From Saprospiraceae bacterium (GTDB lineage Bacteria; Bacteroidota; Bacteroidia; Chitinophagales; Saprospiraceae): a DNA stretch of 64,000 nt. The stretch lies in contig JBBANM010000030.1 in NCBI GenBank assembly GCA_040401995.1, positions 3,390 through 67,389 on the forward strand, written 5' to 3'. Below are positions 5,238 to 55,433 of this stretch, piece after piece; within the stretch, counting starts at the first letter, position 1, and every line of letters starts with the position of its first letter. The notes under the pieces are model-generated. The model saw only the letters and a program-made list of their open reading frames with translations, made no database searches and was not told the DNA's origin. The translations under genes and the position numbers were made by a program.

Positions 5238-5252
5238 TTGTGCTTCTCATTA

Positions 5253-5409
5253 GGAATGGGTGAATAATAAAGTGCCATTTTAGCCGCCGCTATTTTGCAG
5301 TCAATCGACTATCTTTTGAGGCGAATAGCAGCGCTATTTAACGAAAAAGATAGGAAGAGTGGCGGTGAAAGAGCAAGGATAAAGTGGTAGTTTATTGTTT
5401 AACCATTCC
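5253..5409 (+). mobile_element. 157-bp MITE copy 1 (forward orientation, apical subfamily A)
   Basis: Nested palindrome 'ggaatgggtgaataataaagtg...tttattgtttaaccattcc'. It is flanked by 'tta' at 5250-5252 and 'tta' at 5410-5412. Confidence 0.8.
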
Positions 5410-5442
5410 TTAACTTGGCGGCAGATTTAAAAATCCCTTGCT

Positions 5443-8400
5443 ATGACTGCCATTTCTGCCTACGTCCCCAAAAATAAGATCCGCCTCGTAACCGCCGCTT
5501 CGCTTTTTGACGGTCATGATGCGGCCATCAACATCATGCGGCGCATGCTCCAAAGCTCGGGCGCAGAAGTCATCCACCTCGGGCACAACCGCTCAGTGCA
5601 AGACATTGTGGATACTGCTATTCAAGAGGATGTGCAAGGTATTGCACTCACTTCCTACCAAGGCGGGCACAACGAGTTTTTTAGATACATGTACGATCTG
5701 TTACGGGAAAAAGGCGCCGGGCACATCAAGATTTTTGGCGGCGGGGGCGGCACTATTTTGCCTACCGAAATCGAAGAACTCCAACAATATGGCATCGCCC
5801 GCATCTACGCTCCCGACGACGGCCGACGCATGGGACTCCAAGGCATGATCAACGATTTATTATCGCAGTGCGACTTTCCGGTAGGGCAAAAACTAGACAG
5901 CGAATTGGAAACCATCGGCAGCGATAACCCGCATGCCATCGCCCGACTTATTTCGGCCCTCGAAAATTATCCGGAAGCAAATCGCAACTGGCAAGAAAAA
6001 CTCCACCAGCAGGTTGCTTCCCAAAAAATTCCCGTACTGGGCATCACTGGCACCGGCGGCGCAGGAAAATCCAGCTTGGTGGATGAACTGGTGCGGCGTT
6101 TTTTATTGGATTTTCCCGACAAAAAAATTGGCATCCTTTCTGTTGATCCTTCCAAACGCAAAACCGGCGGCGCACTCTTGGGCGACCGCATCCGCATGAA
6201 CGCAGTGGCGAACCCACGTGTGTACATGCGCTCCCTCGCAACCCGCCAGGCCAATTTGGCGCTCTCCAAACATGTAGGTGGCGCGGTGGATGTGCTCAAA
6301 GCGGCAGGGTTTGACCTTATCTTACTCGAAACCTCCGGCATTGGCCAGTCCGATACTGAAATTGTTGAGCACTCTGATGCGGCCTTGTATGTGATGACGC
6401 CCGAATTTGGCGCCGCTACCCAGCTGGAAAAAATTGACATGATTGATTTTGCCGACCTCATCTCTATCAACAAATTCGACAAACGCGGTGCGCTTGATGC
6501 CCTCCGCGATGTACGCAAGCAATACCAACGCGCCCATTTGGCCTGGGAAAAACCCTTGGAGGAAATGCCCGTTTTTGGCACCATTGCCGCCCAATTCAAC
6601 GATCCAGGAATGAATGCCTTGTACAGCGGCATCCTCAATGTGTTGAGAGAAAAAACTGGTGTTATTTTTGCCAGCAGCCTGGTTGCATCAACGCAACTGT
6701 CGGAAAAGATCTACATCATCCCGCCCAGTCGGGTACGCTACTTGTCGGAAATTGCTGAAAAAATCCGTGAATATAATCATTGGACGGAACGGCAAGCAGA
6801 TTTGGCCAACGCCTACCAGGCACTGAGCACTACCGCTCAATTGTTGCCCGAGGAGAATGACGCCCAAGCAATCATCGAAAAACTGCTGGCCGAAAAAAAG
6901 ATGGACTTAGATCGTCGCAGCCTTCAAGTGTTGGAGCAATGGGAGCAAAAAAAGACCCAATACCAAGGTGAAGAATACATCTACCAAGTGCGGGGCAAAG
7001 ACATTCGGGTAAAAACTTATACCGAAAGTTTGTCGCACACCAAAATCCCCAAAGTAGCCACTCCAAGTTATCACAGTTGGGGCGATCGTTTGCGCTGGGC
7101 GTTTCAGGAAAATTATCCAGGTGAATTCCCTTACGCGGCAGGCGTTTTCCCTTTCAAACGTCAAAACGAAGACCCCACGCGCATGTTTGCGGGCGAGGGC
7201 GGCCCCGAGCGTACCAACCGCCGTTTTCATTACCTTTCTTTAGGCATGCCCGCCAACCGCTTGTCGACGGCTTTTGATTCCGTCACTTTGTACGGCGAAG
7301 ACCCCGATCTGCGTCCCGATATTTATGGCAAAATTGGCAACTCGGGCGTAAGCGTTTGTTGCTTGGACGATGTCAAAAAACTCTACTCCGGTTTTGACCT
7401 TAGCGATCCCAAAACCTCCGTGTCGATGACGATCAATGGCCCTGCTGCCACCATCGCTGCGTTTTTTATGAACGCCGCAGTTGATCAGCAATGCGAAAAA
7501 TACATTCGCGCCGAAGGGTTGGAACAAGAGGTAGAAAAAAAACTCCAGCAGCGCTATGAAGCTCGCGGCCTACAGCGCCCCCGTTATCAGGGCGACTTAC
7601 CGGAAGGCAATAACGGACTTGGGCTTTTACTACTCGGCGTCACTGGCGACCAGGTATTAGAGCCCGCTGTTTATGAAAAAATAAAAGCGCAGACCCTCTC
7701 CGCAGTGCGGGGTACCGTGCAAGCCGATATCCTCAAAGAAGACCAGGCGCAGAATACCTGTATTTTTTCCACTGAATTTTCACTGCGTTTGATGGGCGAT
7801 ATGCAAGCCTATTTCGTAGAGCAGCAGGTGCGCAATTTTTATTCGGTGTCCATTTCTGGTTACCATATTGCGGAAGCAGGCGCTAATCCCATTTCGCAAT
7901 TGGCGTTCACCTTATCCAATGGGTTTACTTTTGTGGAGTACTATCTTTCACGGGGCATGCACATCGACGATTTTGCCCCCAACCTGTCTTTCTTTTTTTC
8001 CAACGGCGTAGATCCAGAATATGCGGTGATTGGAAGGGTAGCGCGCAAAATTTGGGCCAAGGCGATGAAAGAAAAATACGGCGCCAACGAACGCTCGCAA
8101 ATGCTCAAATACCACATCCAGACCTCCGGTCGCTCGCTGCATGCTCAAGAAATTGCCTTCAACGACATTCGCACTACCCTGCAAGCTCTTTATGCCATTT
8201 ACGATAATTGCAATTCCCTGCATACCAACGCCTATGATGAAGCCATCACCACGCCAACCGAAGAAAGCGTGCGGCGGGCTTTGGCCATTCAGCTGATCAT
8301 CAACCACGAGTTGGGTTTGGCCAAAAACGAAAACCCACTCCAAGGTGCGTTCATCATCGAAACATTGACCGAATTGGTGGAGGAAGCGGTACTGGCCGAA

Positions 8401-8823
8401 TTTGACCGCATCACCGAACGCGGCGGGGTGCTGGGCGCCATGGAAACCATGTACCAACGCGGAAAAATCCAGGAAGAAAGCCTGTACTATGAAACCCTGA
8501 AACACAATGGCGAGCTGCCGATCATTGGGGTAAATACTTTTTTGAGCAGCGAGGGCTCCCCTACCGTTACGCCCAATCAAGTTATTCGCGCCAATACCGC
8601 CGAAAAGGAAGAACAAATCGCGGCTTTGGAGGGACTGAAAGCGGCACAAGCCCCCCTGTCAGGTTACCCGGAATTCACGGCAATAACCCGTCAAATCCAA
8701 ACCACTGCCCTACAAAACGACAACCTTTTTGCCACCTTGATGGAAGCAACAAAATGGTGCTCCCTGGGGCAGATTACCCAAGTACTGTATGAGGTTGGCG
8801 GCCAATACCGCCGAAACATGTAA
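5443..8823 (+). CDS. icmF: Fused isobutyryl-CoA mutase (B12-binding domain + MeaB-like GTPase + mutase domain)
   Basis: 1126 aa. N-terminal B12 motif '[11 protein letters not shown]', P-loop '[17 protein letters not shown]', and a long C-terminal methylmalonyl-CoA-mutase-like domain. Confidence 0.9.
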
Positions 8824-9110
8824 CCGTTTTTAGGGCATAAAAAAATTCATTACATCAACTTGTCAGGGTTGAGCTATTTTTTTTCGTCTCTACTACCAAT
8901 CAAAATAATACGTATCTTTGCTAGCGCACTCCGAAAAAAACACATCATCCCAATTCCCCTATTACTGATTACCTATTGGTTAATGGCAGCAAGCTTCATT
9001 AGCGGGTTGCACTGTACTTGAGCAAGACTACTTCTTGATTTTAGGTTTTGAGACATTGCATTTCAATGTTTTAACGCTTGCTTATTCACCAAACATCAGT
9101 CCAGTTTTAA

Positions 9111-10202: not shown

Positions 10203-10232
10203 GGATAAAATAATCGCAATGATTGCCGATAA

Positions 10233-10276
10233 AAAAGGGGAGGGAACCGCATTGGTTTTCTCCCCTTTTGTGTTTG
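10233..10276 (+). terminator. Rho-independent terminator after the desaturase gene
   Basis: Stem 'aaaaggggag' (10233-10242) pairs with 'ctcccctttt' (10260-10269), then 'gtgtttg'. Confidence 0.6.
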
Positions 10277-10407
10277 AAAAGGAATTACCATTAAAAACAG
10301 CAACATTGAAAAAGATGTAGTATTTTGATTGCAAGAAAAAAATATAGAAACAGAAAGATCAATCATAGCAGCAAAGCGAATCATTCACCAAAATAAATAG
10401 CCTCCAA

Positions 10408-10767
10408 ATGTCTAGAAAAATTGTCTCCATTGAATCCGATGACCTCGGCACGCTCTATTTTGAAGCCAATGACTACAACGTAGCCGATACTGGAAACTCC
10501 CGCGGAAGTGGTGGTTTAGAAAAAATTGGTCGCAAAGACGTCCCCGATGGCCGCTTCGAAACCGCACTGGGCACCATTAAAAAAGTAGCCGAAAAAGTGG
10601 TAGCGCAAATTCGAAGCATCGAAAACATTCCTGATGAAGTGGAATGCAAAATTGGCGTCACCTTTAGCGCGGATGCCAATGTCATTTTTTCTAAGATTGG
10701 CACCGAATGCAATCTGGAGCTCACCTTAAAATGGATCAAAGAAAAACCTGCTAAACCACAAGCTTAA
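10408..10767 (+). CDS. Small cytoplasmic protein resembling trypsin-co-occurring (Trypco2 / CU044_2847-like) partner proteins
   Basis: 119 aa with no signal peptide or TM segment. The layout is 'IVSIESDDLGTLYFEA', then a Gly/Ser/Arg/Lys linker, then 'PDEVECKIGVTFSADANVIFSKIGTECNLELTLKW'. Its stop TAA (10765-10767) overlaps the ATG of the next gene. Confidence 0.7.
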   Translation: MSRKIVSIESDDLGTLYFEANDYNVADTGNSRGSGGLEKIGRKDVPDGRFETALGTIKKVAEKVVAQIRSIENIPDEVECKIGVTFSADANVIFSKIGTECNLELTLKWIKEKPAKPQA

Positions 10768-11336
10768 TGGACATTCGCCATTGTATAGTCAGAGTAGGTA
10801 CGGGTAGTGGCATACTGGTACTGGGTAAAGATGATATTTCCTACATTCTTACCTGTGCGCATGTTTTGGGTGAAAATCATGAAGCTGTTGAAGTTGCATT
10901 TTGTGATGAAGAAGCCGCGTTTTCTCAAAAGACCACCACTTCTGTAATTGACTTTTGCCCAATTAAGGAGGAAGACATTGCTTTATTGGCCTGTCCTCCC
11001 ATTGTACCCCTACACTATCAATCTATCAAATTATTGAATTCATTGCATGGGCGAGGCTTACCTACGTTTACCTTTGGTTTTCCAATAAGTTTTGGAACAA
11101 ATGGTCGCGCTGATCGGTGCAAGATTGAAAATTTAGAGACCAAGACCAATGGCGGCTTCGATTTATTAACATTAAGTGAAGGTCAGGCACTCAAAGGTGG
11201 ATTTAGTGGTGGTCCACTATTGGACGCGCAGTACCGACACTGCTTGGGCATATTGCGTGATCTCGAAAAACCTGATGAATACACGAGCGAAGCTTTAGCC
11301 TATGCCTATGCCGCAGAGCGGATTGTGGAAAGATTT
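10767..11336 (+). other. Domain: trypsin-like (S1/Trypsin_2-type) protease module, aa 1-190
   Basis: The His32 codon 'cat' lies at 10860-10862. All three catalytic residues sit in canonical sequence contexts. Confidence 0.8.
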
Positions 11337-13652
11337 GAAAAATACCTTACCCTACAAACGCTTCACCCTTACCAAGCTGAATTACGCGCCATGTATCAAG
11401 AAGTGGTGTTAAACGACTCTAAAGGCATGACACTGGCCGATGTTTATATTGAACCGCATTATGGGATCCACCAAAATGGTTTTCCTAAAGATGATGAACG
11501 AATCAAAAATTTAGATAACCCATTTTTTCAAGTTGACAAGAGCCTTCACCACGATCTCATCACATTTTTTAAAGGTGGTAAAAGTCTTCTTTCACTTGAA
11601 GTAAAGCAATCAACTGTAATCCTTCTGTTGGGCGCCCCAGGACAGGGAAAAACCTCTTTTTGTAAACGAGTGATTTATGACTTAACCAGTGAAAAAACGA
11701 ATCCGTTTGGTCAAATCTACTGGTTAAGATTACGAGACATCCCAAACCCTATTGATTTAGCCATTTATCCTGAAAAAATCATCCTTGAGGAATTAAAAAC
11801 AAAAGTCACGGATTTAGAAATTAACTGGAAAAATTCCTTATTGATATTTGACGGCCTGGATGAGCTTTACATACAAGAAGGTTTTGGCAGCAGTAAAATT
11901 GACGAGATTTGTAAAAGCCTGGAAAACATGGCAGAGCGAAAAATAGGGTTACAAATTTTAATTACCTCTCGGTATGGATATGTTGATTTAGAGGCCTTAA
12001 AACAAAGAAACATTTTAATTCTGCGCTTGGAAGACTTGTCAGAAACTCAGCAAGAGCATTGGCTGACAAAATACCGTTTCTTTCATGAAGAGTCACCCTT
12101 AAAAATTGCCAACCTTAGGAAATATCGAGAACACCGATCTATTCAAGAATTGTTAGGGCAACCGATATTGCTACACATGATTGCCACTTTAAAAGAAGAT
12201 GCCAGCAATAAACCAAATCGAGCGGCTATTTATGGTTCATTAGTCAGTCAATTAGTCGAACGCCCTTGGTCAGCAAAAGGGCAGATCAATTTATTAAAAG
12301 ACATTGATTTAGATGAAAAAACACTAAGGCATGCTCTACAAGACATAGCCCATGCCATTTTTATCTCAGGCAAGGGGTATTTACGAAAAGAAGAATTAGA
12401 AAAATTACCAAAAGTTGAAACGATTCTGAATAAAATTCAGCAGCAAAATTTAAGCAATGACCTATTATGGCGAATTGTGATGAGTGCTAGTTACATGACT
12501 GACAAAAATAGAACAGCTGCTGATTTAGAAAATTCAGAAGATCAATCGGCCTATGGCATCGAATTTTTACACAAATCAATGTATGAATATCTTTGTGCAG
12601 AAAAAATTTGGCGAGATATTTTAAACGGATTTTTGGGTAAAGGGGATGATGGACAATGGAAAATTCGTGACGGTAACAGCGCATTAAATTTAGCACATGA
12701 CTTATTTTCAAGTGCCCCATTAAGTCAAGAAGTTCATGGTTACTTAGTAGAAATCATTCAAAACCATCACCCAGAAATCGATAAAAGTACACTTTCATCA
12801 CGAATGCAGGATCAATTTGCATATTGTTTAGAGCGACATTTTCTATATCAGTTTCATTCAAGTTCTCAAAAGTTTCCAATCCAAATGGCAATATCAACCT
12901 TTAAAGGCTATTGGAGTATTCTTAGTAACCTAGGTCAAAAAGTCAACTATATTGATTCAATATCGATATCTTCCCAATTCATATCATTAGTCCAAACTTC
13001 TTTCTTCAATACAATTTATAAGGATAATCTCAATTTAAGCTTTCAAAAACTGACTGGTTGTGAATTAACTGGTTCAAATTTTAATAATTCAAATATGTAT
13101 CATGTGGATTTATCCGAAGCTTTAATAGATCGCTCTTTCTTTTTTTCAGCAAATCTAGAAAGAGCTAATTTGAAAAAAGCTAACTTATTTCTATCTGTAT
13201 TAATCCATGCAAATCTAAATTATTCGGACCTATCTAAAGCAACTTTGAATGAAACAAATATGATGAGTTCAAATATCGTTAACGCAGATATGAGAGGTAC
13301 AAATTTAAGCGGTGCGAATTTATTCGATTCTTATTTAACTCATTCAGACTTAAGTAAAGCAATCTTATTAAAAACTATATTAAGTGATGCTGATCTTAGC
13401 TATGCTAATTTGAGCAATGCTCTTTTAACAAAAGCCGATTTGACAAATGCTAATTTAACAGGAGCCAAATTAAATAATGCATATTTGATTGGAACCAAAT
13501 TAAGAAGTGCCATTTTTACTTTAGAGCAACTCTTATCTACAAAATCTTTATATCAAGCAACGGGGATACCAGATGAGATGAAAAATGAATTAGAAGCACT
13601 GAAGCCATCCCTTTTTGATTTGCCTCAAATAGACGACAATGAATTCACATAA
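10767..13652 (+). CDS. Trypsin-like serine protease / NACHT-type STAND NTPase / pentapeptide-repeat fusion protein
   Basis: 961 aa. Protease triad contexts 'LTCAHVL' (H32), 'EEDIALL' (D70), 'GGFSGGPLL' (S147). Walker A 'GAPGQGKTS', Walker B 'LLIFDGLDEL', and 'ILITSR'. The C-terminus carries about 30 A(D/N)LXX repeats. Confidence 0.9.
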   Translation: MDIRHCIVRVGTGSGILVLGKDDISYILTCAHVLGENHEAVEVAFCDEEAAFSQKTTTSVIDFCPIKEEDIALLACPPIVPLHYQSIKLLNSLHGRGLPTFTFGFPISFGTNGRADRCKIENLETKTNGGFDLLTLSEGQALKGGFSGGPLLDAQYRHCLGILRDLEKPDEYTSEALAYAYAAERIVERFEKYLTLQTLHPYQAELRAMYQEVVLNDSKGMTLADVYIEPHYGIHQNGFPKDDERIKNLDNPFFQVDKSLHHDLITFFKGGKSLLSLEVKQSTVILLLGAPGQGKTSFCKRVIYDLTSEKTNPFGQIYWLRLRDIPNPIDLAIYPEKIILEELKTKVTDLEINWKNSLLIFDGLDELYIQEGFGSSKIDEICKSLENMAERKIGLQILITSRYGYVDLEALKQRNILILRLEDLSETQQEHWLTKYRFFHEESPLKIANLRKYREHRSIQELLGQPILLHMIATLKEDASNKPNRAAIYGSLVSQLVERPWSAKGQINLLKDIDLDEKTLRHALQDIAHAIFISGKGYLRKEELEKLPKVETILNKIQQQNLSNDLLWRIVMSASYMTDKNRTAADLENSEDQSAYGIEFLHKSMYEYLCAEKIWRDILNGFLGKGDDGQWKIRDGNSALNLAHDLFSSAPLSQEVHGYLVEIIQNHHPEIDKSTLSSRMQDQFAYCLERHFLYQFHSSSQKFPIQMAISTFKGYWSILSNLGQKVNYIDSISISSQFISLVQTSFFNTIYKDNLNLSFQKLTGCELTGSNFNNSNMYHVDLSEALIDRSFFFSANLERANLKKANLFLSVLIHANLNYSDLSKATLNETNMMSSNIVNADMRGTNLSGANLFDSYLTHSDLSKAILLKTILSDADLSYANLSNALLTKADLTNANLTGAKLNNAYLIGTKLRSAIFTLEQLLSTKSLYQATGIPDEMKNELEALKPSLFDLPQIDDNEFT
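11590..12206 (+). other. Domain: NACHT-like P-loop NTPase module, aa ~275-480
   Basis: Walker A is encoded at 11631-11654 ('ggcgccccaggacagggaaaaacc'). Walker B is 'LLIFDGLDEL' at aa 358-367. 'GQPILLHMI' lies at aa 464-472. Confidence 0.75.
13026..13514 (+). other. Domain: pentapeptide-repeat beta-helix, aa ~754-916
   Basis: Runs such as 'ANLERANLKKANL', 'TNLSGANLFDSYLTHSDLSKAILLKTILSDADLSYANLSNALLTKADLTNANLTGAKLNNAYL'. Confidence 0.85.
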
Positions 13653-22636: not shown

Positions 22637-23779
22637 ATGAAGGGCTCCTTCACGATTGCTCGATTGTTTAGAATTCCGGTTAAGATTCACTGGAGTTTCA
22701 GTCTTATATTTTTGTACTTGGGTTACATTGGCTATACCGAATCTTGGGATACGCCAACCATTGTGATTTCAGTTAGTATTGTGCTGTCGCTTTTTGTGTG
22801 CGTTGTGCTGCACGAGTTTGGGCACGCGCTCACTGCTCGCTTGTACGGGGTACAAACCCGCGACATCATCCTATCCCCCATTGGCGGCGTTGCAAGATTG
22901 GATCATTTGCCAGAAAAACCCTGGCAGGAATTCATGGTAGCAGTAGCCGGCCCAATGGTAAATGTGGTAATTGCCGCCTTGCTATCGATTCGCTATTTCG
23001 CCTTTCCATTGGACATTCGCATACGTTTGTTCAACGGCCTGATGCATCCGAATAGCAATACATTTTTGCCCAATTTATCGCAGTTTGATTTTTTCCTGAT
23101 CATCCTGTTGTTTTTGAATGTTACTTTGGCTTTGTTCAATTTGCTACCCGCCTTCCCAATGGACGGCGGAAGAATTCTGCGGGCACTGTTGTCGCTGCCT
23201 TTGGGTCGCTTGCGGGCTACGCACTTGGCGGCGCGCATTGGTCAAGCAATGGCCATCATGATCATTTTGGTGGGCATTTTTTACCGCCCAAGTTTGACGT
23301 ATGTTTTGGTAGGAGCTTTTGTTTTTGTCACGGCTGGCAATGAGTATCGAATGGTCTACATTGAAAGTTTGCTAGAAGATTACAAGGTCAATGCATTGTT
23401 GCGAGGGCAATTTACCCGAGTTTATGCCACCGATCAGTTGAGTGTGTTATTGCCAGTGTTACATTCAGGGGTAGAAAAAAACTTTTTGGTTTTTGATCAA
23501 TGGCAAAATTTGGTAGGCGTGTTGCCCGAATACCGCATCCTTGATGCACAACGCAAGAATGATACAACCGCGTTGGTAAGTAAATACATGCTTCCTGAGC
23601 TTAACCCATTGCTGGGAAGCGAATCTTTGCGCCATGCCTTTTATACCCTCCAATCTTCAAATGTAGGGGCTTCTCCGGTTTACAACCAATTCAATCGCCT
23701 GATTGGCATGGTTGATGCCCGTGAAATGACTTCTTTTTTGAAGTCTAAAACCCGGAAATTGTGGTGGAAGAGGGCTTAA
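22637..23779 (+). CDS. M50 site-2 protease family membrane metalloprotease with C-terminal CBS-like region
   Basis: 380 aa. 'HEFGHALTAR' and 'NLLPAFPMDGGRILRA'. The stop TAA (23777-23779) coincides with a MITE target-site duplication. Confidence 0.85.
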   Translation: MKGSFTIARLFRIPVKIHWSFSLIFLYLGYIGYTESWDTPTIVISVSIVLSLFVCVVLHEFGHALTARLYGVQTRDIILSPIGGVARLDHLPEKPWQEFMVAVAGPMVNVVIAALLSIRYFAFPLDIRIRLFNGLMHPNSNTFLPNLSQFDFFLIILLFLNVTLALFNLLPAFPMDGGRILRALLSLPLGRLRATHLAARIGQAMAIMIILVGIFYRPSLTYVLVGAFVFVTAGNEYRMVYIESLLEDYKVNALLRGQFTRVYATDQLSVLLPVLHSGVEKNFLVFDQWQNLVGVLPEYRILDAQRKNDTTALVSKYMLPELNPLLGSESLRHAFYTLQSSNVGASPVYNQFNRLIGMVDAREMTSFLKSKTRKLWWKRA

Positions 23780-23936
23780 GGAACGGGTGAATAATAAAGT
23801 GTTATTTTAGCCGCAGTTATTTTGCCGCCAATCGACTATCTTTTGAGGCGCAATGTGGGGCATTGCAACGAAAAAGATAGGAAGAGTGGCGGTGAAAGAC
23901 CAAGGCAAAAGTGATACTTTATTGTTTACCCGTTCC
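23780..23936 (+). mobile_element. 157-bp MITE copy 2 (forward orientation, apical subfamily B)
   Basis: 'ggaacgggtgaataataaagtg...ctttattgtttacccgttcc'. It is flanked by 'taa' at 23777-23779 and 'taa' at 23937-23939. Confidence 0.85.
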
Positions 23937-23967
23937 TAAATTAAGCTAGTGATTTTTTCACAAAGAA

Positions 23968-24025: not shown

Positions 24026-24484
24026 TTATTTTGCTACCCTTATCATTTCAGCATCGTTGAGGATGTACATCAATTGATTCACATCGTTGCTATTGAGTTC
24101 CAACTTGCCTTTGATGATGATGGCTTCGGTAGTGTACTTAATGGCGTCTTTAGCATACACCTCCATGACCGATTCTGGACCAGCGCCGCCACAGAAGAAA
24201 CACATGTTGTAAGGGAAAGCGGAAAAAACAAATTCTTTGCTCCCCTTATACCCCTCCACCGGGATGATGTACCCCTTAATTTCTACCAATTTTCCTTGTA
24301 AGTTTTTTATTTCTGGACTAAAAATGGGGACGTCCACTTTAAAACCCAGCATATCGTCGTACTGTTTTTTAAACGTGACTTTACCCAAAGTACTCCAAAG
24401 GCTTTTCGCATCTTGCGCATTCCCACTCGTAGCTATCGTCAGGAACAGGAATGAAATAAATCCCGCAAAAAATATTTTTTTCAT
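24026..24484 (-). CDS. Hypothetical secreted protein (possibly DUF3299-like)
   Basis: 152 aa with signal peptide 'MKKIFFAGFISFLFLTIATSGNAQ'. No motif I can assign firmly. Confidence 0.6.
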   Translation of the reverse strand: MKKIFFAGFISFLFLTIATSGNAQDAKSLWSTLGKVTFKKQYDDMLGFKVDVPIFSPEIKNLQGKLVEIKGYIIPVEGYKGSKEFVFSAFPYNMCFFCGGAGPESVMEVYAKDAIKYTTEAIIIKGKLELNSNDVNQLMYILNDAEMIRVAK

Positions 24485-24503
24485 GCTGTATGCTTTTTAT
24501 TAA

Positions 24504-24660
24504 GGAACGGGTGAATAATAAAGTGTCATTTTAGCCGCCGTTATTTTGCTGCCAATCGACTATCTTTTGAGGCGCAATGTGGGGCATTGCAACGAAAAAG
24601 ATAGGAAGAGTGGCGGTGAAAGAGCAAGGCAAAAGTGATACTTTATTGTTTACCCGTTCC
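24504..24660 (+). mobile_element. 157-bp MITE copy 3 (forward orientation, apical subfamily B)
   Basis: Nearly identical to copy 2. It is flanked by 'taa' at 24501-24503 and 'taa' at 24661-24663. Confidence 0.85.
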
Positions 24661-24690
24661 TAAGCTACTAAATTAAGCTTTTTTGGGTGC

Positions 24691-26070
24691 TTATCGCCTT
24701 TTTATAAACCTGCGTTTATTCCTTGACTTATTTCGCCCATTTTGTTCCTCTATTTCACCAAAAACGACATTCAAGCCCAACCTTACATTAGCTGAAATAT
24801 TATTGAGTTTGAACAATGCTGGCAGATTATCGGTAGCGCCAATAAGCTGTATGGGGCCGAGTTTTAGTTTAAAATTTGCCCCAAAATTATTGTACGCATT
24901 GTTGCGAATGGCGTAGATCCCGCCAATGGTTAAAGTTTCGCTTAAACGCATCGACGCACTCAATCCGATGGCCGGCGAAGTGATACCCCGATAACGGTCG
25001 CTGTACAACAATGCGCCCAATCGCCAGTTTTCTCCAAGATTAAAAGCGGCGCTCAAATAAGCCGTAAGCGGTAGAGATGTAATGTACGGAGATTGGGTTT
25101 GCACCACTTTCACCTTGGCTTCCAAGGTGTCAACTATTTTATTGAGGTTAAAACTGTCTTTGAATATTTTCGGAAAAATGTCCAAGCCATCATAGTTATA
25201 ATTTCCCCTTACGGTTAGATTGGAGACATTGTTTTGCCAACGAATGCTACCCAAATTCAGCACACTCCCCGAAATATCCAAGGGACCAAATTTACCTGAA
25301 AAACCAAAATCCAGCGCGTAGCCATAGTTGGAAGTCCAGGCACGACTGCCAGTAAAACCGCCAAAGTCGATTTTTGGCGTAAAACTGGAAAAGTTTTTGA
25401 ACCCCCAATCGCCAGTAGCATTCATGGCAAAATCGGATTGCAAACTGATTTGATAAACATCGCTGCTAGTCGTCAATCGCAAATCATTACGAATGGAAGA
25501 AACGTCGCCAAATCCATTTAAGACCTTAAATCGTGCGCCAAAAGTAAACATCGGGCTGGGTGAATAAGCCAATCCTAGGGCAATTTCATGATAGCCTTGG
25601 TTGACAAAATTGGGGGCAATTTGAATCGTTTGCCCAATAAATTGTGCATTGCCTTTCCAAGCCAATTGCGCCAATTCGCGGGGATATTGTACAAAAGAAT
25701 TGAACCGAATGGTATGCCCCGCCGAAAAAAACCACTTTCCAGCGCGTACGCCTATGCCAATTGTGCCTACGTCCAACCGGTTGCGGATGTAGTTTTGGGC
25801 AGCTAGTTTACTGATGGCATTGTCGATATTGAGTACGGTTTTTCCTTGAGCATTTTTCGATACCAAATCTCCGTACTGAAAACCGGTTGCTTGCGTGTAC
25901 CCATATACGCTAGGCAAGGCGATGGTCACTTTTTGATCGGGCAACAAGCTTGGATTGGTAAGATTGGCTTGCCAAGTTCCTTGCAAAAAATGGGAGCCGA
26001 GATCCAATTGTGCTTGCAATGAGGCCGAAAAATAAAACAGAATGCTTAAAGAAAGTAGCGTTCTTTTCAT
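24691..26070 (-). CDS. Putative outer-membrane beta-barrel protein (DUF5723-like)
   Basis: 459 aa with signal peptide 'LSILFYFSASLQAQ'. Alternating hydrophobic beta-strand pattern rich in G/S/N/F/Y, with a basic C-terminal tail. Confidence 0.65.
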   Translation of the reverse strand: MKRTLLSLSILFYFSASLQAQLDLGSHFLQGTWQANLTNPSLLPDQKVTIALPSVYGYTQATGFQYGDLVSKNAQGKTVLNIDNAISKLAAQNYIRNRLDVGTIGIGVRAGKWFFSAGHTIRFNSFVQYPRELAQLAWKGNAQFIGQTIQIAPNFVNQGYHEIALGLAYSPSPMFTFGARFKVLNGFGDVSSIRNDLRLTTSSDVYQISLQSDFAMNATGDWGFKNFSSFTPKIDFGGFTGSRAWTSNYGYALDFGFSGKFGPLDISGSVLNLGSIRWQNNVSNLTVRGNYNYDGLDIFPKIFKDSFNLNKIVDTLEAKVKVVQTQSPYITSLPLTAYLSAAFNLGENWRLGALLYSDRYRGITSPAIGLSASMRLSETLTIGGIYAIRNNAYNNFGANFKLKLGPIQLIGATDNLPALFKLNNISANVRLGLNVVFGEIEEQNGRNKSRNKRRFIKRR

Positions 26071-26172
26071 GGGTTTTGTGTTTAGTAAGCAGAAAAATTA
26101 ACTTTCCGATTTTGGGTTTTGAATAGGAAGTCGAACGGTTCATTTCAAGTGAGCTTCCTATTCAAAAGCTTA

Positions 26173-26329
26173 GGAACGGTTGAATAATAAATTACCACTT
26201 TACCCTTGCTCTTTCGCCGACACTCTTCCTATCTTTTTCGTTACAATGCTCCACATTGCGCCTCAAAAGATAGTCGATTGGCAACAAAATAGCGGCGGCT
26301 AAAATGTCAATTTATTAATCACCTGTTCC
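26173..26329 (-). mobile_element. 157-bp MITE copy 4 (reverse orientation, apical subfamily B)
   Basis: Reverse complement of the family consensus. It is flanked by 'tta' at 26170-26172 and 'tta' at 26330-26332. Confidence 0.8.
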
Positions 26330-26366
26330 TTATCAAAAAATCGGGAGTTAATTTTTTGCGTCATAG

Positions 26367-27902
26367 TTAGTTTGATTTTACGCCGACTATTGCGCCAACT
26401 TTTACTTTTACCAATTGATCAGCTAAGGCTCGTACTGCTTTACCTGGGTTACTCAATTCAGTAGAGAGCGACAAGGAAATTTGAACTTTTTTGGCTGCAC
26501 GAATTTTTTCAAAGCGTATGGAATCCACATTGGCAAAGGTAGTTTTGGTTATGCTGGTAGTCGCAATCCCTTGGGAATTGGCTGGCGCCCCTTGCAAAAG
26601 TCTTTGAGCGCCCATCAAAAGCGAGTCGATGGTTTTTCCTTTGGAGTCCAAGAAATAGGCTTGTACTGTAGCATCAAGGGGCAGCGCATTTTCCGTTACC
26701 ACTTTAAATTGTACTCGATCTACATTTTTAAGCTTACTCAAATCAAGCGCAACATCCGTTTTGTAGGCAAAATTGCTCACTCTACCATATAAGGGTAAGT
26801 CAACCAACACTTGGGCTAAGTAAAATCCATCGTCGGTTACAAAGCCTTTGATATTGCCATTCGGATTGGTTACGGCATCGATATTAAAAACGACCTTAAC
26901 GGGACTAGAACCAAGTAGATCGATAATATTGGAATTATTGCGGTCAAAAAAGAAGGTATCGTATTTTACTTTTCCGCGTTCACTAAGCAAAGGATAGGGC
27001 AAATCAATACCATTTGCAACGTAATCACTCACTAATTTAATCTGACTGCCATCAAAGTTGATTACCTGAAAGTCTTTGACAATTGTTTTTGCTGGCACGC
27101 CGAATGAATTTTGAAAATAGAACGTGGCCCGGGGGTCAGCAAATCTAAAATTACCCTGTAAGTAGCTTTTGAAAAAATCAATGCTAATGCTATCCTTACC
27201 TCCGGTGTAAACCAATGTGCCAAAAAAGCCCTCGGCGTAGCTAAATGCCAGATTTGAAAATTTGTAGATAAACAACTCAGGTTTGACGGTTTTTCCGCTG
27301 CTAGTTACGGCGGTATAATTGAGGTTGACCACACCTTTGTCGGGGATAAAAGCATATCCACTCATAGATACAGGAGCATTCTGATTGGTGCCAATTGGTT
27401 TTTGACCACTACCACTGTATGCTGGCACATCCTTAACAATGGTAAAAGGTTTGCCATTATTCAACAATTGCGGAATGGTGATGGTCACCTTAAGCGGTTC
27501 GTTGGAAGGGTTTTCAAAATAATAAACAAAATCGCCTGATTTCATATCAACCCGATCCAGCCTTACACCGGTTGGCAAAGAAAAAGGCAACTCCAAACTA
27601 GGAGACAATGCTGGGATGATAGGCGGAATTGAATTTCCGATGGTGGAAAACACTTCATTGCTGGTGCGCTTGATGATGTCACCACGATACTGAAACCGAA
27701 TTGAACCGTTGGGGTTAATGAAGACATCTTTTAAATTGGCAACATTATTGATGATTTCCCGTGCCGTCGTTTCGGTATTGATAATCGAAAAGGCCAAATC
27801 GCTTTGATAGTTGAGCGGCTCAACATCTTTTAAATCTTTAATTTGTTGACATCCTAGTAGGGATAATAAAAACAGAATCCACAGCGTACTGGTAATCTTC
27901 AT
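26367..27902 (-). CDS. Hypothetical lipoprotein
   Basis: Lipobox 'MKITSTLWILFLLSLLGCQQ' from the ATG at 27902 (the ORF extends to 27998). About 510 aa, beta-rich, family not recognised. Confidence 0.65.
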   Translation of the reverse strand: MKITSTLWILFLLSLLGCQQIKDLKDVEPLNYQSDLAFSIINTETTAREIINNVANLKDVFINPNGSIRFQYRGDIIKRTSNEVFSTIGNSIPPIIPALSPSLELPFSLPTGVRLDRVDMKSGDFVYYFENPSNEPLKVTITIPQLLNNGKPFTIVKDVPAYSGSGQKPIGTNQNAPVSMSGYAFIPDKGVVNLNYTAVTSSGKTVKPELFIYKFSNLAFSYAEGFFGTLVYTGGKDSISIDFFKSYLQGNFRFADPRATFYFQNSFGVPAKTIVKDFQVINFDGSQIKLVSDYVANGIDLPYPLLSERGKVKYDTFFFDRNNSNIIDLLGSSPVKVVFNIDAVTNPNGNIKGFVTDDGFYLAQVLVDLPLYGRVSNFAYKTDVALDLSKLKNVDRVQFKVVTENALPLDATVQAYFLDSKGKTIDSLLMGAQRLLQGAPANSQGIATTSITKTTFANVDSIRFEKIRAAKKVQISLSLSTELSNPGKAVRALADQLVKVKVGAIVGVKSN

Positions 27903-28173
27903 TTGTTTGGGATTGAGAGCAATGAAAAAATGAACCATGAATGTGTTCAAAGCATTAAACGTTTTTTTAACGACAAAGGGTGTAATTTCGTCCTTCAAAA
28001 ATATTTGTTATTGAAATATCATTTGTTGACATGAAGGTCGTAACTCGTTTCACCTTTTATTTCGATAGGAAAGCAGTAATATTCATTCAGCAAATATTTT
28101 GTACAGGAAAAAACAGTAACTTAAATCTGTTTTTTAATTTTTATACTTCTGCACGATAAGAGTTGTAGCACTT

Positions 28174-29355
28174 ATGCAAAAAAATATAGTCCACGCAGCC
28201 GCTAGTTTTGTCCGTAAATTTTACGACGAACATCAGGATGCGCGCTTGGTTTTTCACAACTATCAATTGGCGCACCAAACTGCGGCTTTGGTAGTCGAAA
28301 TCGCCCAAGCTGACCACATTTCTGCTGAAGAAACCGAAGCAGCTGCATTGGCTGCTTGGTTTTTGCCATTGGGATTTACTTTGGATTATCGCCATCCGCT
28401 CAACGCAAGTTTGCAGGAAATGGGTCGCTTTTTTTTGATTCATCCTTATCCCGATGCGCAACGCATCAAAGTTGTACAGACTTTACAAACGATTGGCAAC
28501 ACCCAAACGCCGGCCAGCGCGGAAGAAAGATTGCTTAATGATGCATTTTTTATTGCTGCTTACTTGATCGATAGCGAAAACCGTAGTGCTTTGCTAAAAT
28601 TAGAATGGAAACTCGTAGAAAAACGAGAATTCAAAAAAATGGACTGGCTGGAACTTCGAATCCAGCAGTTGTTGACGATCAAATTGCAAAAACATTATTC
28701 CAAACTGACTTACGAACCCCAACTTGCGCAGCAATTGCTAGCATTGACGGAAGCACAAAGCAAAGCGGAAAAAAAACAAGTCAAAAAGGGCGACAAAACT
28801 CGATTCCAATATGCCGAAGAACCTGATACTGCCCGGCAAGCACAATCTTTTTTTCGCATCAACTACCGCAACCACATCAATTTAAGCTCTATTGCCGACA
28901 ATAAGGCCAATATCATGATCAGCGTAAATGCTATCCTGATCAGTGTGATGATTTCATTTTTATCGTACCGCAATGCTGCTGCTACCAACCCGATGATTCT
29001 GCTGCCGGTGGTGATTTTTTTAGTAACGGGGTTGGCATCGCTGATCTTTGCAGTTTTATCAGCTCGCCCAAAGGTAACTAACTTGAACTCGAAGGCTGGT
29101 CTTAGCAAAACTGAGATCGTCCGCAACGTGGTATTTTTTGGCAATTTTGTGCCCTTGTCGATAGATGATTATGAAGAAGCGATGGATACGGTATTCCGCA
29201 ATAGCGAATTGTACATCGGCAATCTTACCCGAGATTTGTATTTCCTGGGTAAGGTGCTTGACAAAAAATACCGATTCCTGACGGCTTCGTACAATATTTT
29301 TATGGTGGGTTTTGTAGTTACAGTGGCTACTTTTTTGTGGGTATTGTTTGCTTGA
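28174..29355 (+). CDS. HD-like N-terminal domain fused to a DUF5706 / Pycsar-effector-like transmembrane domain
   Basis: 393 aa. N-terminus 'FHNYQLAHQTAALV...AAWFLPLGF'. C-terminus 'INLSSIADNKANIMISVNAILISVMISFL' plus two more TM helices. Confidence 0.65.
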   Translation: MQKNIVHAAASFVRKFYDEHQDARLVFHNYQLAHQTAALVVEIAQADHISAEETEAAALAAWFLPLGFTLDYRHPLNASLQEMGRFFLIHPYPDAQRIKVVQTLQTIGNTQTPASAEERLLNDAFFIAAYLIDSENRSALLKLEWKLVEKREFKKMDWLELRIQQLLTIKLQKHYSKLTYEPQLAQQLLALTEAQSKAEKKQVKKGDKTRFQYAEEPDTARQAQSFFRINYRNHINLSSIADNKANIMISVNAILISVMISFLSYRNAAATNPMILLPVVIFLVTGLASLIFAVLSARPKVTNLNSKAGLSKTEIVRNVVFFGNFVPLSIDDYEEAMDTVFRNSELYIGNLTRDLYFLGKVLDKKYRFLTASYNIFMVGFVVTVATFLWVLFA

Positions 29356-36959: not shown

Positions 36960-37024
36960 AATAAAGCAATAACCTACTTACGAAATCCAATTTACCTTAT
37001 ATATATTGAGCCCAGTGTATTTAA

Positions 37025-37181
37025 GGAACGGTTAAGCAGTAAAGTATCCATTTATCCTTGCTCTTTCATCGCCACTCTTCCTATCTTTTTCGTTAAATAG
37101 CGCTGCTGTTCGCCTCAAAAGATAGTCGATTGGCAGCAAAATAGCGGCGGCTAAAACGACACTTTATTATTCACTCGTTCC
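37025..37181 (-). mobile_element. 157-bp MITE copy 5 (reverse orientation, apical subfamily A)
   Basis: Reverse complement of the family consensus. It is flanked by 'taa' at 37022-37024 and 'taa' at 37182-37184. Confidence 0.8.
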
Positions 37182-37346
37182 TAAGACTCTAAATAACTAC
37201 AATCTGCTGTATGGATTGGCGCAATTGAAAAGATTTTTATATAAACAGGGTTGGCGCAACTTCGTTTAAATCGTATTTTCGAGGCAAAAGCCCTAGTTTT
37301 AGAGGTTCCTAATTTTTCCATCGGATCAATCCTAAGGTTAAACAAT

Positions 37347-42970: not shown

Positions 42971-43132
42971 AGAGCTTGTTCAGAATTCTGCTTCGAGCTA
43001 CAAAAGGCCAAAATTCACCCCAATTTCGTTACAAAAATGCTAATATAGCGCTGCCACACTCCGCTTTTTGCGCCTCATTGGTGCAAATTTTTGCTCATTT
43101 TCGCCATCGAACCAGAATCCTGAACAAGCTCT
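42971..43132. repeat. Long-range inverted repeat (20-nt arms, 122-nt spacer)
   Basis: 'agagcttgttcagaattctg' (42971-42990) versus 'cagaatcctgaacaagctct' (43113-43132). 19 of 20 positions are complementary. Confidence 0.6.
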
Positions 43133-44053: not shown

Positions 44054-44055
44054 CT

Positions 44056-47481: not shown

Positions 47482-47541
47482 CCTACTGCTGATCTTGGAA
47501 ATCAATTCCAGATTAGCAGGTGACTACAAAACAATTGCGCC

Positions 47542-49195: not shown

Positions 49196-49200
49196 TGGAT

Positions 49201-49427
49201 TGCTTTTTGGTTATATTCGTTGCGGATCGTGATTTGTAAAAAATGTAAAAGTTTGGGTCGCTCACATTTCGGCCAAAAAAGGTCAAATTTTAGCCATTCT
49301 TCGCCTCTTTTTTCAGCCGATGCCCTGCATCACCTTCAAAAAGGAGGCTCGACTGCCAAAAATTTGCCTGCTTTTTTGGCTCGAAACCGCTGACCTAAAC
49401 TTTTACTAATGAATATAACCAAAAGCA
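49201..49427. repeat. 227-bp nested palindromic intergenic element (single copy in this window)
   Basis: Outer arms are 'tgctttttggttatattcgtt' (49201-49221) and 'aatgaatataaccaaaagca' (49408-49427). Inner arms are 'gtaaaagtttgggtc' (49245-49259) and 'gacctaaacttttac' (49392-49406). Confidence 0.6.
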
Positions 49428-49433
49428 TACCCT

Positions 49434-50837: not shown

Positions 50838-50848
50838 CCCCGATTGCC

Positions 50849-52045: not shown

Positions 52046-52132
52046 AATGCAAAAAGGATAAACTCAAACGACAATCAGCTTGCCTATTTTGAACTTATCC
52101 TTTTTACATCAATTATAAAAAGTGCTGATCTT

Positions 52133-52867: not shown

Positions 52868-53001
52868 AATAGGTTAATTGGTCTAGTAATGTTTAATCCC
52901 TTTGTTTTGTTTCCTCTGTCGGCTAAAAATAGCTTTTCTCGTGGTAATTTCAACGAAAATACAACAATAACTCATTTTGGAATGCAAAGATAGCATTGCC
53001 G

Positions 53002-54099: not shown

Positions 54100-54127
54100 T
54101 TTTGGGCCGATTAAATCTCAAAATGTA

Positions 54128-55342
54128 TTACCAGTGCTGCGACTGATAAGGGTAGCGAATATGATATTGTTTTTTGATCAATTGCAAAACCTGACTGCGT
54201 AGTTCGTCAATATTTTCCTTGGTAAGCGCCGAAACAAAAATATTATCATGGTCAAAAAGGTGCTTTAGCGTCCCTTGCAACCCTTCCTCAATTTCAAATT
54301 TAGCTTCCGGTTCTAAAAAGGGATCGTAATAGAGCTCACGGTAACGGTCGATCTTGTTAAAAATAAACAGCGTGGGTTTGTCGTAGGCATTTAGTTCCTG
54401 CAATGTGCTGTTAACGGTGCGAATATGGTCTTCATGCTGGGGGTGCGAAATGTCGACCACATGCAATAAAATGTCGCTTTCCCGCACTTCATCCAGTGTA
54501 GATTTGAAGCTCTCGATCAAATGGTGCGGCAATTTGCGGATAAACCCTACGGTATCGGACAGCAAAAACGGAACCCCTTCCCAAGCTACTTTGCGAACGG
54601 TAGTATCCAGGGTGGCAAAAAGTTTGTTTTCTGCAAAAACATCAGATTTGGTCAACAGATTCATCAAAGTGGACTTGCCCACGTTGGTATAACCCACAAA
54701 CGCCACACGAATCAATTCTCCGCGATTTTTGCGTTGCGTGGTATTTTGAAGGTCAATTTTGTCCAATTTTTTCTTCAAAAACGCAATCTTATCGCGAATG
54801 ATCCGGCGATCCGTTTCGATTTCTTTTTCACCGGGTCCGCGCATCCCGATACCACCTCGCTGACGCTCCAAGTGCGTCCACAAACCACGCAGGCGGGGCA
54901 GTAGGTATTGCATTTGCGCCAATTCTACTTGCGTTTTTGCCTGAGCCGTTTGGGCGCGGGTGGCAAAAATATCCAGAATCAAACTACTGCGGTCAATGAT
55001 CTTGACCTTTAATTCTTCTTCCAGGATATTGGTTTGTTTGCCGGTAAGGTCATCGTCAAAAATGACCATACTTACTTTCGGGTGGGTTCTGACGTATTGC
55101 TGAATTTCTTCCAGTTTCCCTTTTCCGATAAAAGTTTTGGAATCAGGTTGCGCCATTTTTTGTACAAACCGCTTGATGCTTTCGGCGCCTGCTGTTTCGG
55201 CCAAAAACTCCAACTCATCGAGATATTCTTCAATCAGCGCTTCCGATTGTCCCTGCTGAATGATACCCACCAGAACCGCTTGTTCGGGTTCTTGTTTTAT
55301 CCCTGTTTTCTTCTTCTCTCCTAAATTCCAATCGCTTCCCAT
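54128..55342 (-). CDS. hflX: GTPase HflX
   Basis: G1 'VGYTNVGKSTLMN', G3 'DTVGFI', G4 'NKID', plus the N-terminal HflX domain. The ATG at 55342 is preferred over the TTG at 55366. Confidence 0.9.
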   Translation of the reverse strand: MGSDWNLGEKKKTGIKQEPEQAVLVGIIQQGQSEALIEEYLDELEFLAETAGAESIKRFVQKMAQPDSKTFIGKGKLEEIQQYVRTHPKVSMVIFDDDLTGKQTNILEEELKVKIIDRSSLILDIFATRAQTAQAKTQVELAQMQYLLPRLRGLWTHLERQRGGIGMRGPGEKEIETDRRIIRDKIAFLKKKLDKIDLQNTTQRKNRGELIRVAFVGYTNVGKSTLMNLLTKSDVFAENKLFATLDTTVRKVAWEGVPFLLSDTVGFIRKLPHHLIESFKSTLDEVRESDILLHVVDISHPQHEDHIRTVNSTLQELNAYDKPTLFIFNKIDRYRELYYDPFLEPEAKFEIEEGLQGTLKHLFDHDNIFVSALTKENIDELRSQVLQLIKKQYHIRYPYQSQHW

Positions 55343-55372
55343 AAATATTTTTTCGCTACACTTCAATCCTTA

Positions 55373-55402
55373 GGAATAGTTAAGCCATAAAGTATCCATT
55401 CC
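55373..55402. mobile_element. 30-bp internally deleted remnant of the MITE family
   Basis: 'ggaatagttaagccataaagtatccattcc' keeps both termini (compare the copy 5 left end 'ggaacggttaagcagtaaagtatccatt'). It is flanked by 'tta' at 55370-55372 and 'tta' at 55403-55405. Confidence 0.55.
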
Positions 55403-55433
55403 TTACACAATTAACAAAAACAGTTGACGCAGC

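Follow-up and report, generated by a model that had tools for sequence, protein, structure and literature searches.

The window analysed here, a stretch of DNA of 64,000 nucleotides, contains several copies of a gene-less 157-bp element with inverted-repeat ends, which is very probably moved in trans by a DDE transposase and thereby acquires 3-bp T-W-A duplications. The family is real, it is undescribed as judged by comparison with Rfam, PLSDB and the literature, and its kind is well known. Its structure, target-site duplication, dispersal and high copy number were observed directly. An earlier note on the same DNA had interpreted the element as a MITE, and this interpretation was supported on each of the three points on which it was examined, namely the consistency of the flanking trinucleotides, the occurrence of empty sites and the comparison with described families.

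Copies in the window and in the host genome

Five 157-bp copies and one 30-bp remnant had been reported for the window, and their coordinates, lengths and strands all proved correct. An independent repeat search recovered the same copies with 82-98% identity, and a profile search of the window found exactly five copies and none beyond. For five 157-bp sequences that are about 90% alike a chance origin is excluded. Every copy in the window is intergenic, and no ORF of at least 80 aa lies inside any of the 157-bp copies.

Copy 1 (5250..5412, core 5253-5409, + strand) separates a CoA pyrophosphatase gene from icmF, whose start is 34 bp downstream of it, and is also present in a 95%-identical strain (L068). 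Its ends are of the GGAAT/ATTCC subfamily, and its apex is AATAGC/GCTATT. Copy 2 (23777..23939, core 23780-23936, + strand) is inserted between the stop codon of an M50 peptidase gene (22637-23779) and a terminator hairpin, the TAA at its left being this stop codon itself. Copy 3 (24501..24663, core 24504-24660, + strand) has a conserved 152-aa gene and a DUF5723 gene as neighbours, both on the - strand, and is therefore anti-oriented to local transcription. Copy 4 (26170..26332, core 26173-26329, - strand) is nested in another hairpin repeat, family B (26090-26169 plus 26333-26365), which occurs uninterrupted and 90% identical in a Haliscomenobacter MAG (L008:13769-13883). Copy 5 (37022..37184, core 37025-37181, - strand), with the apex AACAGC/GCTATT, is inserted in the intergenic region from which a PorE/OmpA-like gene (-) and a TPR gene (+) diverge. 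The remnant (55370..55405, core 55373-55402, - strand), situated between hflX and an EnvC-like gene, has an internal deletion that leaves 24 nt of the right arm and the terminal 6 nt, 30 bp in all. It was found ungapped in the X3 and X4 strains, and a similar 45-bp mini-copy flanked by TAA/TAA is present at L054:3581-3625.

Outside the window, a core 20-mer matched 16 element-bearing JGI metagenome contigs, which represent 13 new insertion sites and the L068 copy of site 1. The JGI metagenome insertions all adjoin housekeeping genes. In the metagenome runs X1 and X3 the summed contig depth over the element amounts to about 150-420 times the single-copy depth, and 175-294 distinct contigs of X1 fall on the left half of the element. 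The host, an uncultured freshwater Saprospiraceae/Haliscomenobacter-like Bacteroidota bacterium, carries a few hundred copies.

Target-site duplications and empty sites

A DDE transposase supplied in trans would make a 3-nt staggered cut in its target at T-W-A, so that a duplicated TTA or TAA would bracket each insertion. The flanks claimed for the window are indeed present, with TTA/TTA around copies 1, 4 and the remnant and TAA/TAA around copies 2, 3 and 5 (for copies 4, 5 and the remnant as read on the + strand). The flanking trinucleotides are identical in 6/6 cases in the window, with a chance probability below 1e-9. For 14 further copies, comprising JGI metagenome loci and one locus of a Lewinellaceae MAG, identical 3-bp flanks were found in 8; the flanks of another 2 match when a short deletion inside the right end is allowed for, those of 3 are one base apart, and 1 has a 1-nt insertion. 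Among all 20 elements, counting L012 and the metagenome loci along with the window, 14/20 show identical 3-bp flanks and 16/20 do so if a terminal deletion is allowed, while the other 4 are a single change away (one base in 3, a 1-nt insertion in 1). Of the 44-46 contig ends in each of the runs X1 and X3, about 42-43 (about 95%) read TAA or TTA beside the terminus; for X1 the ends are divided into about 22 with TAA, about 20 with TTA and 2 others, and X3 is similar. A lack of consistent TTA/TAA flanks among copies genome-wide, which the earlier note had named as evidence against a MITE, was not encountered in the metagenome copies and contig ends.

The end subfamily of a copy correlates with the orientation of its duplication (Fisher p = 0.011). 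This correlation is not accounted for by the MITE explanation and was counted against it.

Empty sites were sought as the earlier note had proposed, and were found for copies 1, 2, 3 and 5 in freshwater metagenome contigs. Two of them are exact, i.e. 157 + 3 bp are missing and a single TWA is left. Copy 3 is exactly absent from an X9 contig (record 26), where 24273-24502 is joined to 24663-25764 with a skip of 160 nt, and its absence from X4 record 18 is exact bar one base. Copy 1 is exactly absent from an X9 contig (joint 5252->5429, the intervening letters being the right flank) and is also absent in X4. Copy 5 is missing in X4 and in an X3 strain of about 99% identity, with a single TAA retained (joint 36992->37182, 28 letters between). 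An X9 contig lacks copy 2, and in a related MAG (L001) the site of this copy is empty, GCTTAA being followed directly by the terminator. At the site of copy 4, many contigs join 26167/26169 straight to 26333-26337. Exact empty sites, nesting in another repeat and internal-deletion derivatives are thus all directly observed. Since near-identical strains differ in their filled sites, the family is active or was so very recently, and the presence or absence of copies between strains that are 94-99% identical shows that individual copies are dispensable.

These data also bear on two other modes of transposition. Both TTA and TAA contain TA, as would fit a Stowaway-like MITE that is moved by an IS630/Tc1-mariner transposase and duplicates TA only, the third base being a coincidence or a part of the element. 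Several bacterial MITEs are of such a type, e.g. Correia and IS630-derived elements, and Correia elements duplicate TA. Nevertheless, this reading is extremely improbable for the present family: some copies would then require an additional T on their right and others an additional A on their left, 160 and not 159 nt are missing at the exact empty sites, and the termini of the element resemble IS5 ends. Furthermore, one pair of flanks (L054) is TTG/TTG, which has no TA and argues for a 3-bp and not a 2-bp duplication. A duplication of the TA dinucleotide was rejected on these grounds, i.e. the three duplicated bases, the TTG/TTG case and the 160-nt gaps.

Movement of a single-stranded DNA hairpin by a Y1 HUH transposase, as for REP/RAYT or IS200/IS605-derived palindrome-associated elements, would agree with the strand asymmetry of the element described below and with its potential to form a hairpin over the full length on both DNA strands (-40.7 and -33.1 kcal/mol). 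But Y1 elements insert beside a fixed tetra- or pentanucleotide and do not duplicate it, whereas here the right trinucleotide changes along with the left (TTA-TTA, TAA-TAA, TTG-TTG) and empty sites retain exactly one trinucleotide. Insertion also occurs in both orientations relative to target and genes, and a Y1 transposase domain is absent from the window ORFs scanned. We therefore give this mode hardly any credence; with true co-varying duplications and both insertion orientations, the element was not assigned to the REP/RAYT or IS200/IS605 type.

The hairpin and its conservation

The element as a whole forms one long hairpin with a predicted RNA folding energy of -86.5 kcal/mol (z = -13), and none of 200 shuffled sequences folded as well. 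Its terminal inverted repeats, in which GGAACGGGTGAATAATAAAGTG pairs with ...CTTTATTGTTTACCCGTTCC, are the outermost part of a pairing that runs along the whole element. The variation among copies follows this structure. Two apical variants exist as had been claimed, one in copies 1 and 5 and the other in copies 2-4, and the compensatory changes pointed out before in copy 1 (GGAATGG/CCATTCC) and copy 4 (AAATTG/TAATTT) were borne out. In a covariation analysis, compensatory double changes were found in 18/61 pairs, as compared to 7.2 +/- 1.7 in shuffles, 0/500 of which reached 18, and 95.4% of the cells are paired. Compensatory changes are present in both terminal repeats, for which transposase binding alone gives no explanation, and this too was counted against the MITE reading.

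RNA folding is 10-35 kcal/mol better in one orientation, and this holds for 15/15 copies; the consensus hairpin contains 9 G:U and 0 A:C pairs. The family has divergent relatives, of which a Lewinellaceae genome contains one. The superfamily spans at least two families of Saprospirales, and several features have been preserved in it despite the co-variation of the arms, namely the length, the apical stem-loop GGCGCATAGCAGCGCTACGCAAC and an internal A-G mismatch within the GCTATTTT/AAAAGAGC boxes.

Such a pattern would be expected if the element were primarily a functional structured RNA or ssDNA hairpin used by the host and spread by transposition; it might then act as an mRNA stabiliser, a processing site or a small RNA, and the conservation of the hairpin would reflect selection for host function. 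The folding preference for one strand with its G:U pairs, the compensatory changes and the apex and mismatch kept in divergent relatives all speak for this, as does the occurrence of MITE-bearing contigs in a metatranscriptome. Several observations weigh against it. Relative to tandem flanking genes, 6 copies are co-oriented and 4 anti-oriented, i.e. there is no bias, and copies are dispensable, being present or absent among closely related strains. The Lewinellaceae relative folds about equally well on either strand (-94.7 vs -90.1 kcal/mol), which suggests a founder effect as the source of the strand asymmetry. Rfam contains no match, and despite the hundreds of copies the metatranscriptome depth on the element is not above that of neighbouring genes. 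Covariation, finally, can arise likewise by quasipalindrome mutagenesis, in which template switching generates it in close inverted repeats. Taken as a whole, a primary host function, and with it selection on the hairpin for such a function, appears unlikely to us.

With the MITE interpretation, the full-length hairpin would be maintained by template switching between the arms together with descent from successful master copies, and its upkeep would not be due to host function; effects on the host would be incidental. There is a small chance that the 157-nt hairpin is more than the passive body of a MITE, the folded strand serving as substrate or cofactor of the mobilising enzyme, or serving the host. 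If a folded DNA or RNA strand were indeed such a substrate or cofactor, this would be a hairpin-dependent mode of transposition that still yields 3-bp duplications.

The putative transposase and related elements

The claim that the window encodes no transposase was upheld, as no such domain was detected by Pfam/NCBIfam scans of 49 ORFs, a set that takes in almost every non-nested ORF of the window with 140 aa or more. Neither the window nor any of the fetched loci (about 1 Mb) gave an IS5-InsH homologue by tblastn, and no X1 contigs were found that share the terminal repeat alone and then diverge. No autonomous partner with matching terminal repeats was found in these sequences, which counts against the MITE explanation. 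In one short comparison with the inverted repeat of E. coli K-12 IS5A (GGAAGGTGCGAATAAG), the left end of the element (GGAACGGGTGAATAAT) matches at 11/16 positions and the right end at 10/16. As a point against, E. coli IS5 itself generates 4-bp duplications. Because of the 3-bp TWA duplication and the termini that resemble the IS5 inverted repeat, we lean towards a mobilising transposase of the IS5 / PIF-Harbinger type. The link between TTA/TAA duplications and IS5/PIF-Harbinger elements made in the earlier note agrees with the literature (PMC4122938, PMC2213677, PMC4561436): PIF/Harbinger and IS5 elements produce 3-bp duplications, at TNA/TWA (PMC4122938, PMC2213677), the duplication of mPing is TTA/TAA (PMC4561436), and MITEs of IS5 type are already known in Bacteroidota (PMC4596501).

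No described family was matched. Rfam returned 0 matches when the whole window was scanned at the gathering threshold, and again 0 for the element at E <= 1; the PLSDB plasmids contained no match to the element, and the literature searched described nothing of the sort for this lineage. The Correia elements of Neisseria, ERIC/IRU of enterobacteria and RUP of S. pneumoniae are likewise about 100-160 bp long, present in hundreds of copies, intergenic, often co-transcribed and able to form long hairpins, but they have other termini, reside in other host phyla and share no sequence similarity with the present family. Correia and RUP duplications are TA or other.

MITE239, MITE464/PgRS, MITE700 and BrickBuilt of P. 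gingivalis, together with the ATR of N. meningitidis, are bacterial IS5-family MITEs of Bacteroidota and Neisseria; they have terminal repeats matching the IS5 family, are intergenic and in some cases form long stem-loops (PMC4596501). The P. gingivalis MITEs begin with GAGACC... or ACGTCA... and occur in tens of copies with irregular duplications (PMC4596501), whereas the present family begins with GGAAC, has hundreds of copies and shows a strict 3-bp TWA duplication, and no IS matching it was found. Tourist-like PIF/Harbinger MITEs such as mPing are similarly small and non-coding, with terminal inverted repeats, high copy number, a 3-bp TTA/TAA duplication and clean empty sites that keep one trinucleotide (PMC4561436, PMC2213677, PMC4122938). 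Tourist elements, however, are eukaryotic and require two element-encoded proteins; the present host is bacterial, the element is wholly one hairpin, and sequence similarity is absent.

Overall, this work documents a MITE family that is very abundant and currently mobile in its host, an uncultured freshwater lineage of the Saprospiraceae. To our knowledge, the mobile-element biology of the Saprospiraceae is almost unstudied. The element sites explain why assemblies of the host genome break there, and the filled and empty sites that differ among 94-99% identical strains are ready markers for strain tracking in lake metagenomes. The expression of adjoining genes may be altered by the insertions, since these are located at stop codons, in a divergent promoter region and upstream of icmF. 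The partner transposase, once identified, would provide an active 3-bp TWA-targeting system from the Bacteroidota.

Family A copies in the window and their empty sites

The earlier note had described a 157-bp hairpin MITE, here called family A, with five full copies at 5253-5409 (+; copy 1), 23780-23936 (+; copy 2), 24504-24660 (+; copy 3), 26173-26329 (-; copy 4) and 37025-37181 (-; copy 5), and a 30-bp remnant at 55373-55402 flanked by TTA/TTA. All positions, strands and flanking trinucleotides were confirmed. The copies were regained with 82-98% identity by an independent repeat search of the window, and a profile of 15 family members detected exactly these five full copies there. The two apical variants that had been distinguished are present, and the compensatory changes GGAATGG/CCATTCC and AAATTG/TAATTT were both seen. 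All copies in the window are intergenic, with a density of one per 13 kb, and the element folds as one long hairpin (RNA: -86.5 kcal/mol, z = -13.2).

Empty sites, as sought for a mobile element, were found for copies 1, 2, 3 and 5 in contigs of related strains from public metagenome runs or in the related MAG L001. In a contig of run X9, 24273-24502 continues directly at 24663, skipping exactly the 160 nt (157 + 3) of copy 3 and one duplication; copy 3 is also missing from an X4 contig, exact bar one base. Position 5252 is joined exactly to the right flank of copy 1 with a single TTA in an X9 contig, and an X4 contig likewise lacks this copy. Copy 5 is missing, with a single TAA remaining, from X4 and from the X3 strain, whose contig differs from the window at only 6/693 and 16/1265 flanking positions. 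Copy 2 is missing from X9 and from the syntenic L001, in which the TAA stop codon of the M50 peptidase gene is directly followed by the terminator. Copy 4 lies within another hairpin repeat (family B), which a Haliscomenobacter MAG contains without interruption at 90% identity; thus, copy 4 is a nested insertion. The 30-bp remnant is common to the X3 and X4 strains, and a similar 45-bp mini-copy flanked by TAA/TAA occurs on a metagenome contig (L054:3581-3625). Both retain the two termini and the duplication; deletion across the hairpin explains them best.

Beside copy 5, about half of the positions in the 29 nt to its left (36993-37021) differ from the X3 strain, which lacks this copy and is elsewhere about 99% identical, so that divergence is locally high next to the insertion. 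A composite transposon formed by copies 3 and 4, inverted around the DUF5723 gene, was rejected, since both copies carry a duplication of their own and the DUF5723 gene keeps its place in strains without copy 3. A rearrangement caused by the MITE, considered because the synteny with L001 stops at copy 3, was rejected on the same grounds.

Target sites and the mobilising enzyme

An exact 20-mer from the invariant core matched 19 JGI metagenome contigs, 16 of which bear family A; the other three (L067, L069, L072) are chance matches within a conserved gene. One contig (L068) shows the site of copy 1 in a strain with 95% identity, and three pairs look redundant or chimeric (L055/L062, L058/L065 and L063 with its two sources). 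L063 joins a left flank from L061 to a right part from L058 and is probably an assembly chimera across the repeat. After removal of these contigs and L068, 13 new insertion sites remained, every one adjoining housekeeping genes. Together with the 3-bp flanks and the empty sites, these many further sites support the MITE interpretation of the earlier note, and the finding of family A is real.

Identical 3-bp flanks were present in 14 of the 20 elements examined. Those of L054 and L058 also match when a right-end deletion of 12-13 nt is allowed, three pairs differ by one base and one has a 1-nt insertion. TAA or TTA stands at the junction in about 42-43 of the 44-46 contig ends that leave family A in runs X1 and X3. 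The flanks of L054 are TTG/TTG, and therefore the duplication comprises three bases and not the TA dinucleotide. An IS630-type enzyme, which would duplicate TA, thus fails on the data, as does a Y1 single-strand transposase, because the flanks are true duplications that vary together. A TTAA tetranucleotide target was rejected, as it fits only 5/12 sites.

Among the window and loci L054-L071, copies ending in GGAAT...ATTCC always have TTA flanks (4 loci), and those ending in GGAAC...GTTCC have TAA flanks in 9/11 cases (Fisher p = 0.011). Thus, subfamily and insertion orientation at the asymmetric target are correlated. In three insertions (window 23777-23779, L057:2760-2762 and L058:6661-6663) the target is the TAA stop codon of the adjoining gene, which stays intact through the duplication. 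At L064:953-973, the reading frame instead enters the element for 6 codons and then stops.

PIF/Harbinger elements are recognised by a 3-bp TTA/TAA duplication, which is stated for IS5 elements, too (PMC4122938, PMC2213677); mPing uses the same target and excises precisely (PMC4561436). MITEs whose ends are of the IS5 type have already been described in Bacteroidota (PMC4596501). The ends of family A, GGAACGGGTGAATAAT and GGAACGGGTAAACAAT, match the inverted repeats of IS5A from E. coli K-12, GGAAGGTGCGAATAAG and GGAAGGTGCGAACAAG, at 11/16 and 10/16 positions. From the duplication, these ends and the known Bacteroidota elements, we infer that the mobiliser would be a DDE transposase of the IS5/PIF-Harbinger type that acts in trans. 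In line with the earlier note, a domain scan of 49 ORFs of the window yielded no transposase domain. The terminal repeat of family A measures 22 nt. For a parent IS, which would be bounded by GGAAYGGGTGAATAAT, a fuzzy terminal-repeat search of all loci, tblastn with E. coli InsH, Pfam scans of the window and locus ORFs and inspection of a Haliscomenobacter hydrossis plasmid were negative. In two contig comparisons, no contigs left family A just past the terminal repeat, and two terminal-repeat matches in IMG/VR were dismissed as chance matches inside a phage gene. The partner transposase is thus still missing after searches of window, loci and contigs.

Maintenance of the hairpin

Over the 61 pairs of the hairpin in 15 copies, 95.4% of the cells are paired. 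Both-sided changes occur in 18 pairs versus 7.2 ± 1.7 in shuffles (0/500) and 2-7 in slid controls; one-sided changes are chiefly from G:U to G:C or A:U. The consensus contains nine G:U and no A:C pairs, and in every copy the RNA fold is stronger in one orientation by 10-35 kcal/mol. Single-stranded DNA of either strand folds, too (-40.7 and -33.1 kcal/mol). The both-sided changes, the presence of G:U without A:C pairs and the one-sided RNA folding could suggest a role of the hairpin as RNA. Four results argue against it: there is no orientation bias relative to tandem flanking genes (6 co-oriented, 4 anti-oriented), single copies are dispensable among near-identical strains, metatranscriptome contigs bear the element at a depth no higher than that of neighbouring genes, and a divergent relative lacks the strand asymmetry. 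In view of these results, the strand asymmetry would stem from the founder sequence, and the covariation may reflect template switching across inverted repeats that lie close together, along with the amplification of a few master copies.

Host, abundance and related repeats

When GTDB species genomes were scanned with proteins as guides, the window was placed in the Saprospirales, the closest relative being a 'Chitinophagales' MAG (M50 peptidase 83% identical at the amino-acid level), followed by Haliscomenobacter MAGs (53-56%). Family A is absent from the fetched flanks of these relatives. The invariant 20-mer had no match in 185,579 GTDB species genomes, which means that the GTDB representatives do not include the source species. 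Neighbouring genes include icmF, whose exact product was not found on record in a search for encoding contigs, secA, hflX, pyruvate kinase and several Bacteroidota DUFs, as well as T9SS-type proteins (a PorE-like protein and proteins with Por_Secre_tail domains). The window sequence occurs in freshwater, aquatic, pond and wetland metagenome runs, three of which contain 90-95% of its sampled words; in the freshwater sample of run X1 the organism reaches a depth of about 200x.

The region 10408-13652 holds a Trypco1 gene followed by a gene for a 961-aa trypsin-NACHT-pentapeptide protein that resembles a STAND NTPase of the defence type. Depth over this region drops to about 0-1 in each of the four runs from related strains, and it is therefore a strain-variable island. 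The product of gene 28174-29355 has a C-terminal PycTM domain (Pycsar effector); no adjoining cyclase was recognised, and the neighbouring 543-aa gene (26367-27998) had no match in Pfam and NCBIfam. The intergenic 71 nt at 52058-52128 are replaced by 79 unrelated letters in X3, X4 and X15 contigs.

The summed contig depth over family A is about 270x single copy in X1 (three copies in the shared query) and 250-420x in X3 (one copy), a rough measure to which related strains and families add and in which both arms may map to one query. The left half of the element is covered by 175-294 distinct contigs in X1. The depth points to a few hundred copies in each genome, which fits the density in the window.

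Two divergent members, both with TTA/TTA flanks, came out of a profile search of the fetched loci: L055:3239-3384 and, with 158 nt, L012:16235-16392 in a Lewinellaceae MAG. Together with a metagenome copy with co-varied arms (L066:1895-2051), they have in common a length of about 157 nt, a TTA or TAA duplication, which is TTA in all three, the boxes GCTATTTT and AAAAGAGC including a conserved A-G mismatch, and the apex GGCGCATAGCAGCGCTACGCAAC, like the variant of copies 1 and 5. Thus, the window family is a branch of a wider superfamily in the Saprospirales.

The window holds further repeats. Family B measures about 113 bp (26090-26169 and 26333-26365, with copy 4 in between) and contains AAAATCGGGA(A)GTTAATTTTTTGC in both arms. 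The Haliscomenobacter MAG with the intact copy (L008:13769-13883) has an M50 peptidase of only about 54% identity. Family B is multi-copy, as indicated by its depth and by numerous short joints. Family C, a third MITE-like family (42972-43131; 160 bp, TAA/TAA flanks, about 100x single-copy depth), has 25-nt terminal repeats (GAGCTTGTTCAGAATTCTGCTTCGA) and appears to be missing in an X15 contig (joint 42972 to 43143). Its GAG ends and 3-bp duplication resemble the IS5-family ends given for P. gingivalis (PMC4596501). Another long hairpin repeat at about 49245-49412 shows raised depth and contig breaks at 49285/49379. Between the centre of this repeat and the core of family A there is a weak alignment (about 65% identity in 73 nt; nhmmer E = 0.56), a hint that there may be families with a common core and different ends.

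Neither Rfam nor PLSDB (blastn) contained a match to family A, and literature searches for MITEs in Bacteroidota and Saprospiraceae yielded nothing on this lineage. The kind of element is well known; as far as these sources go, family A itself appears to be undescribed, and the earlier note had not recognised it as a described family either. Family A is notable for being so abundant, for having demonstrably moved in natural populations in recent times and for the strong maintenance of its hairpin.
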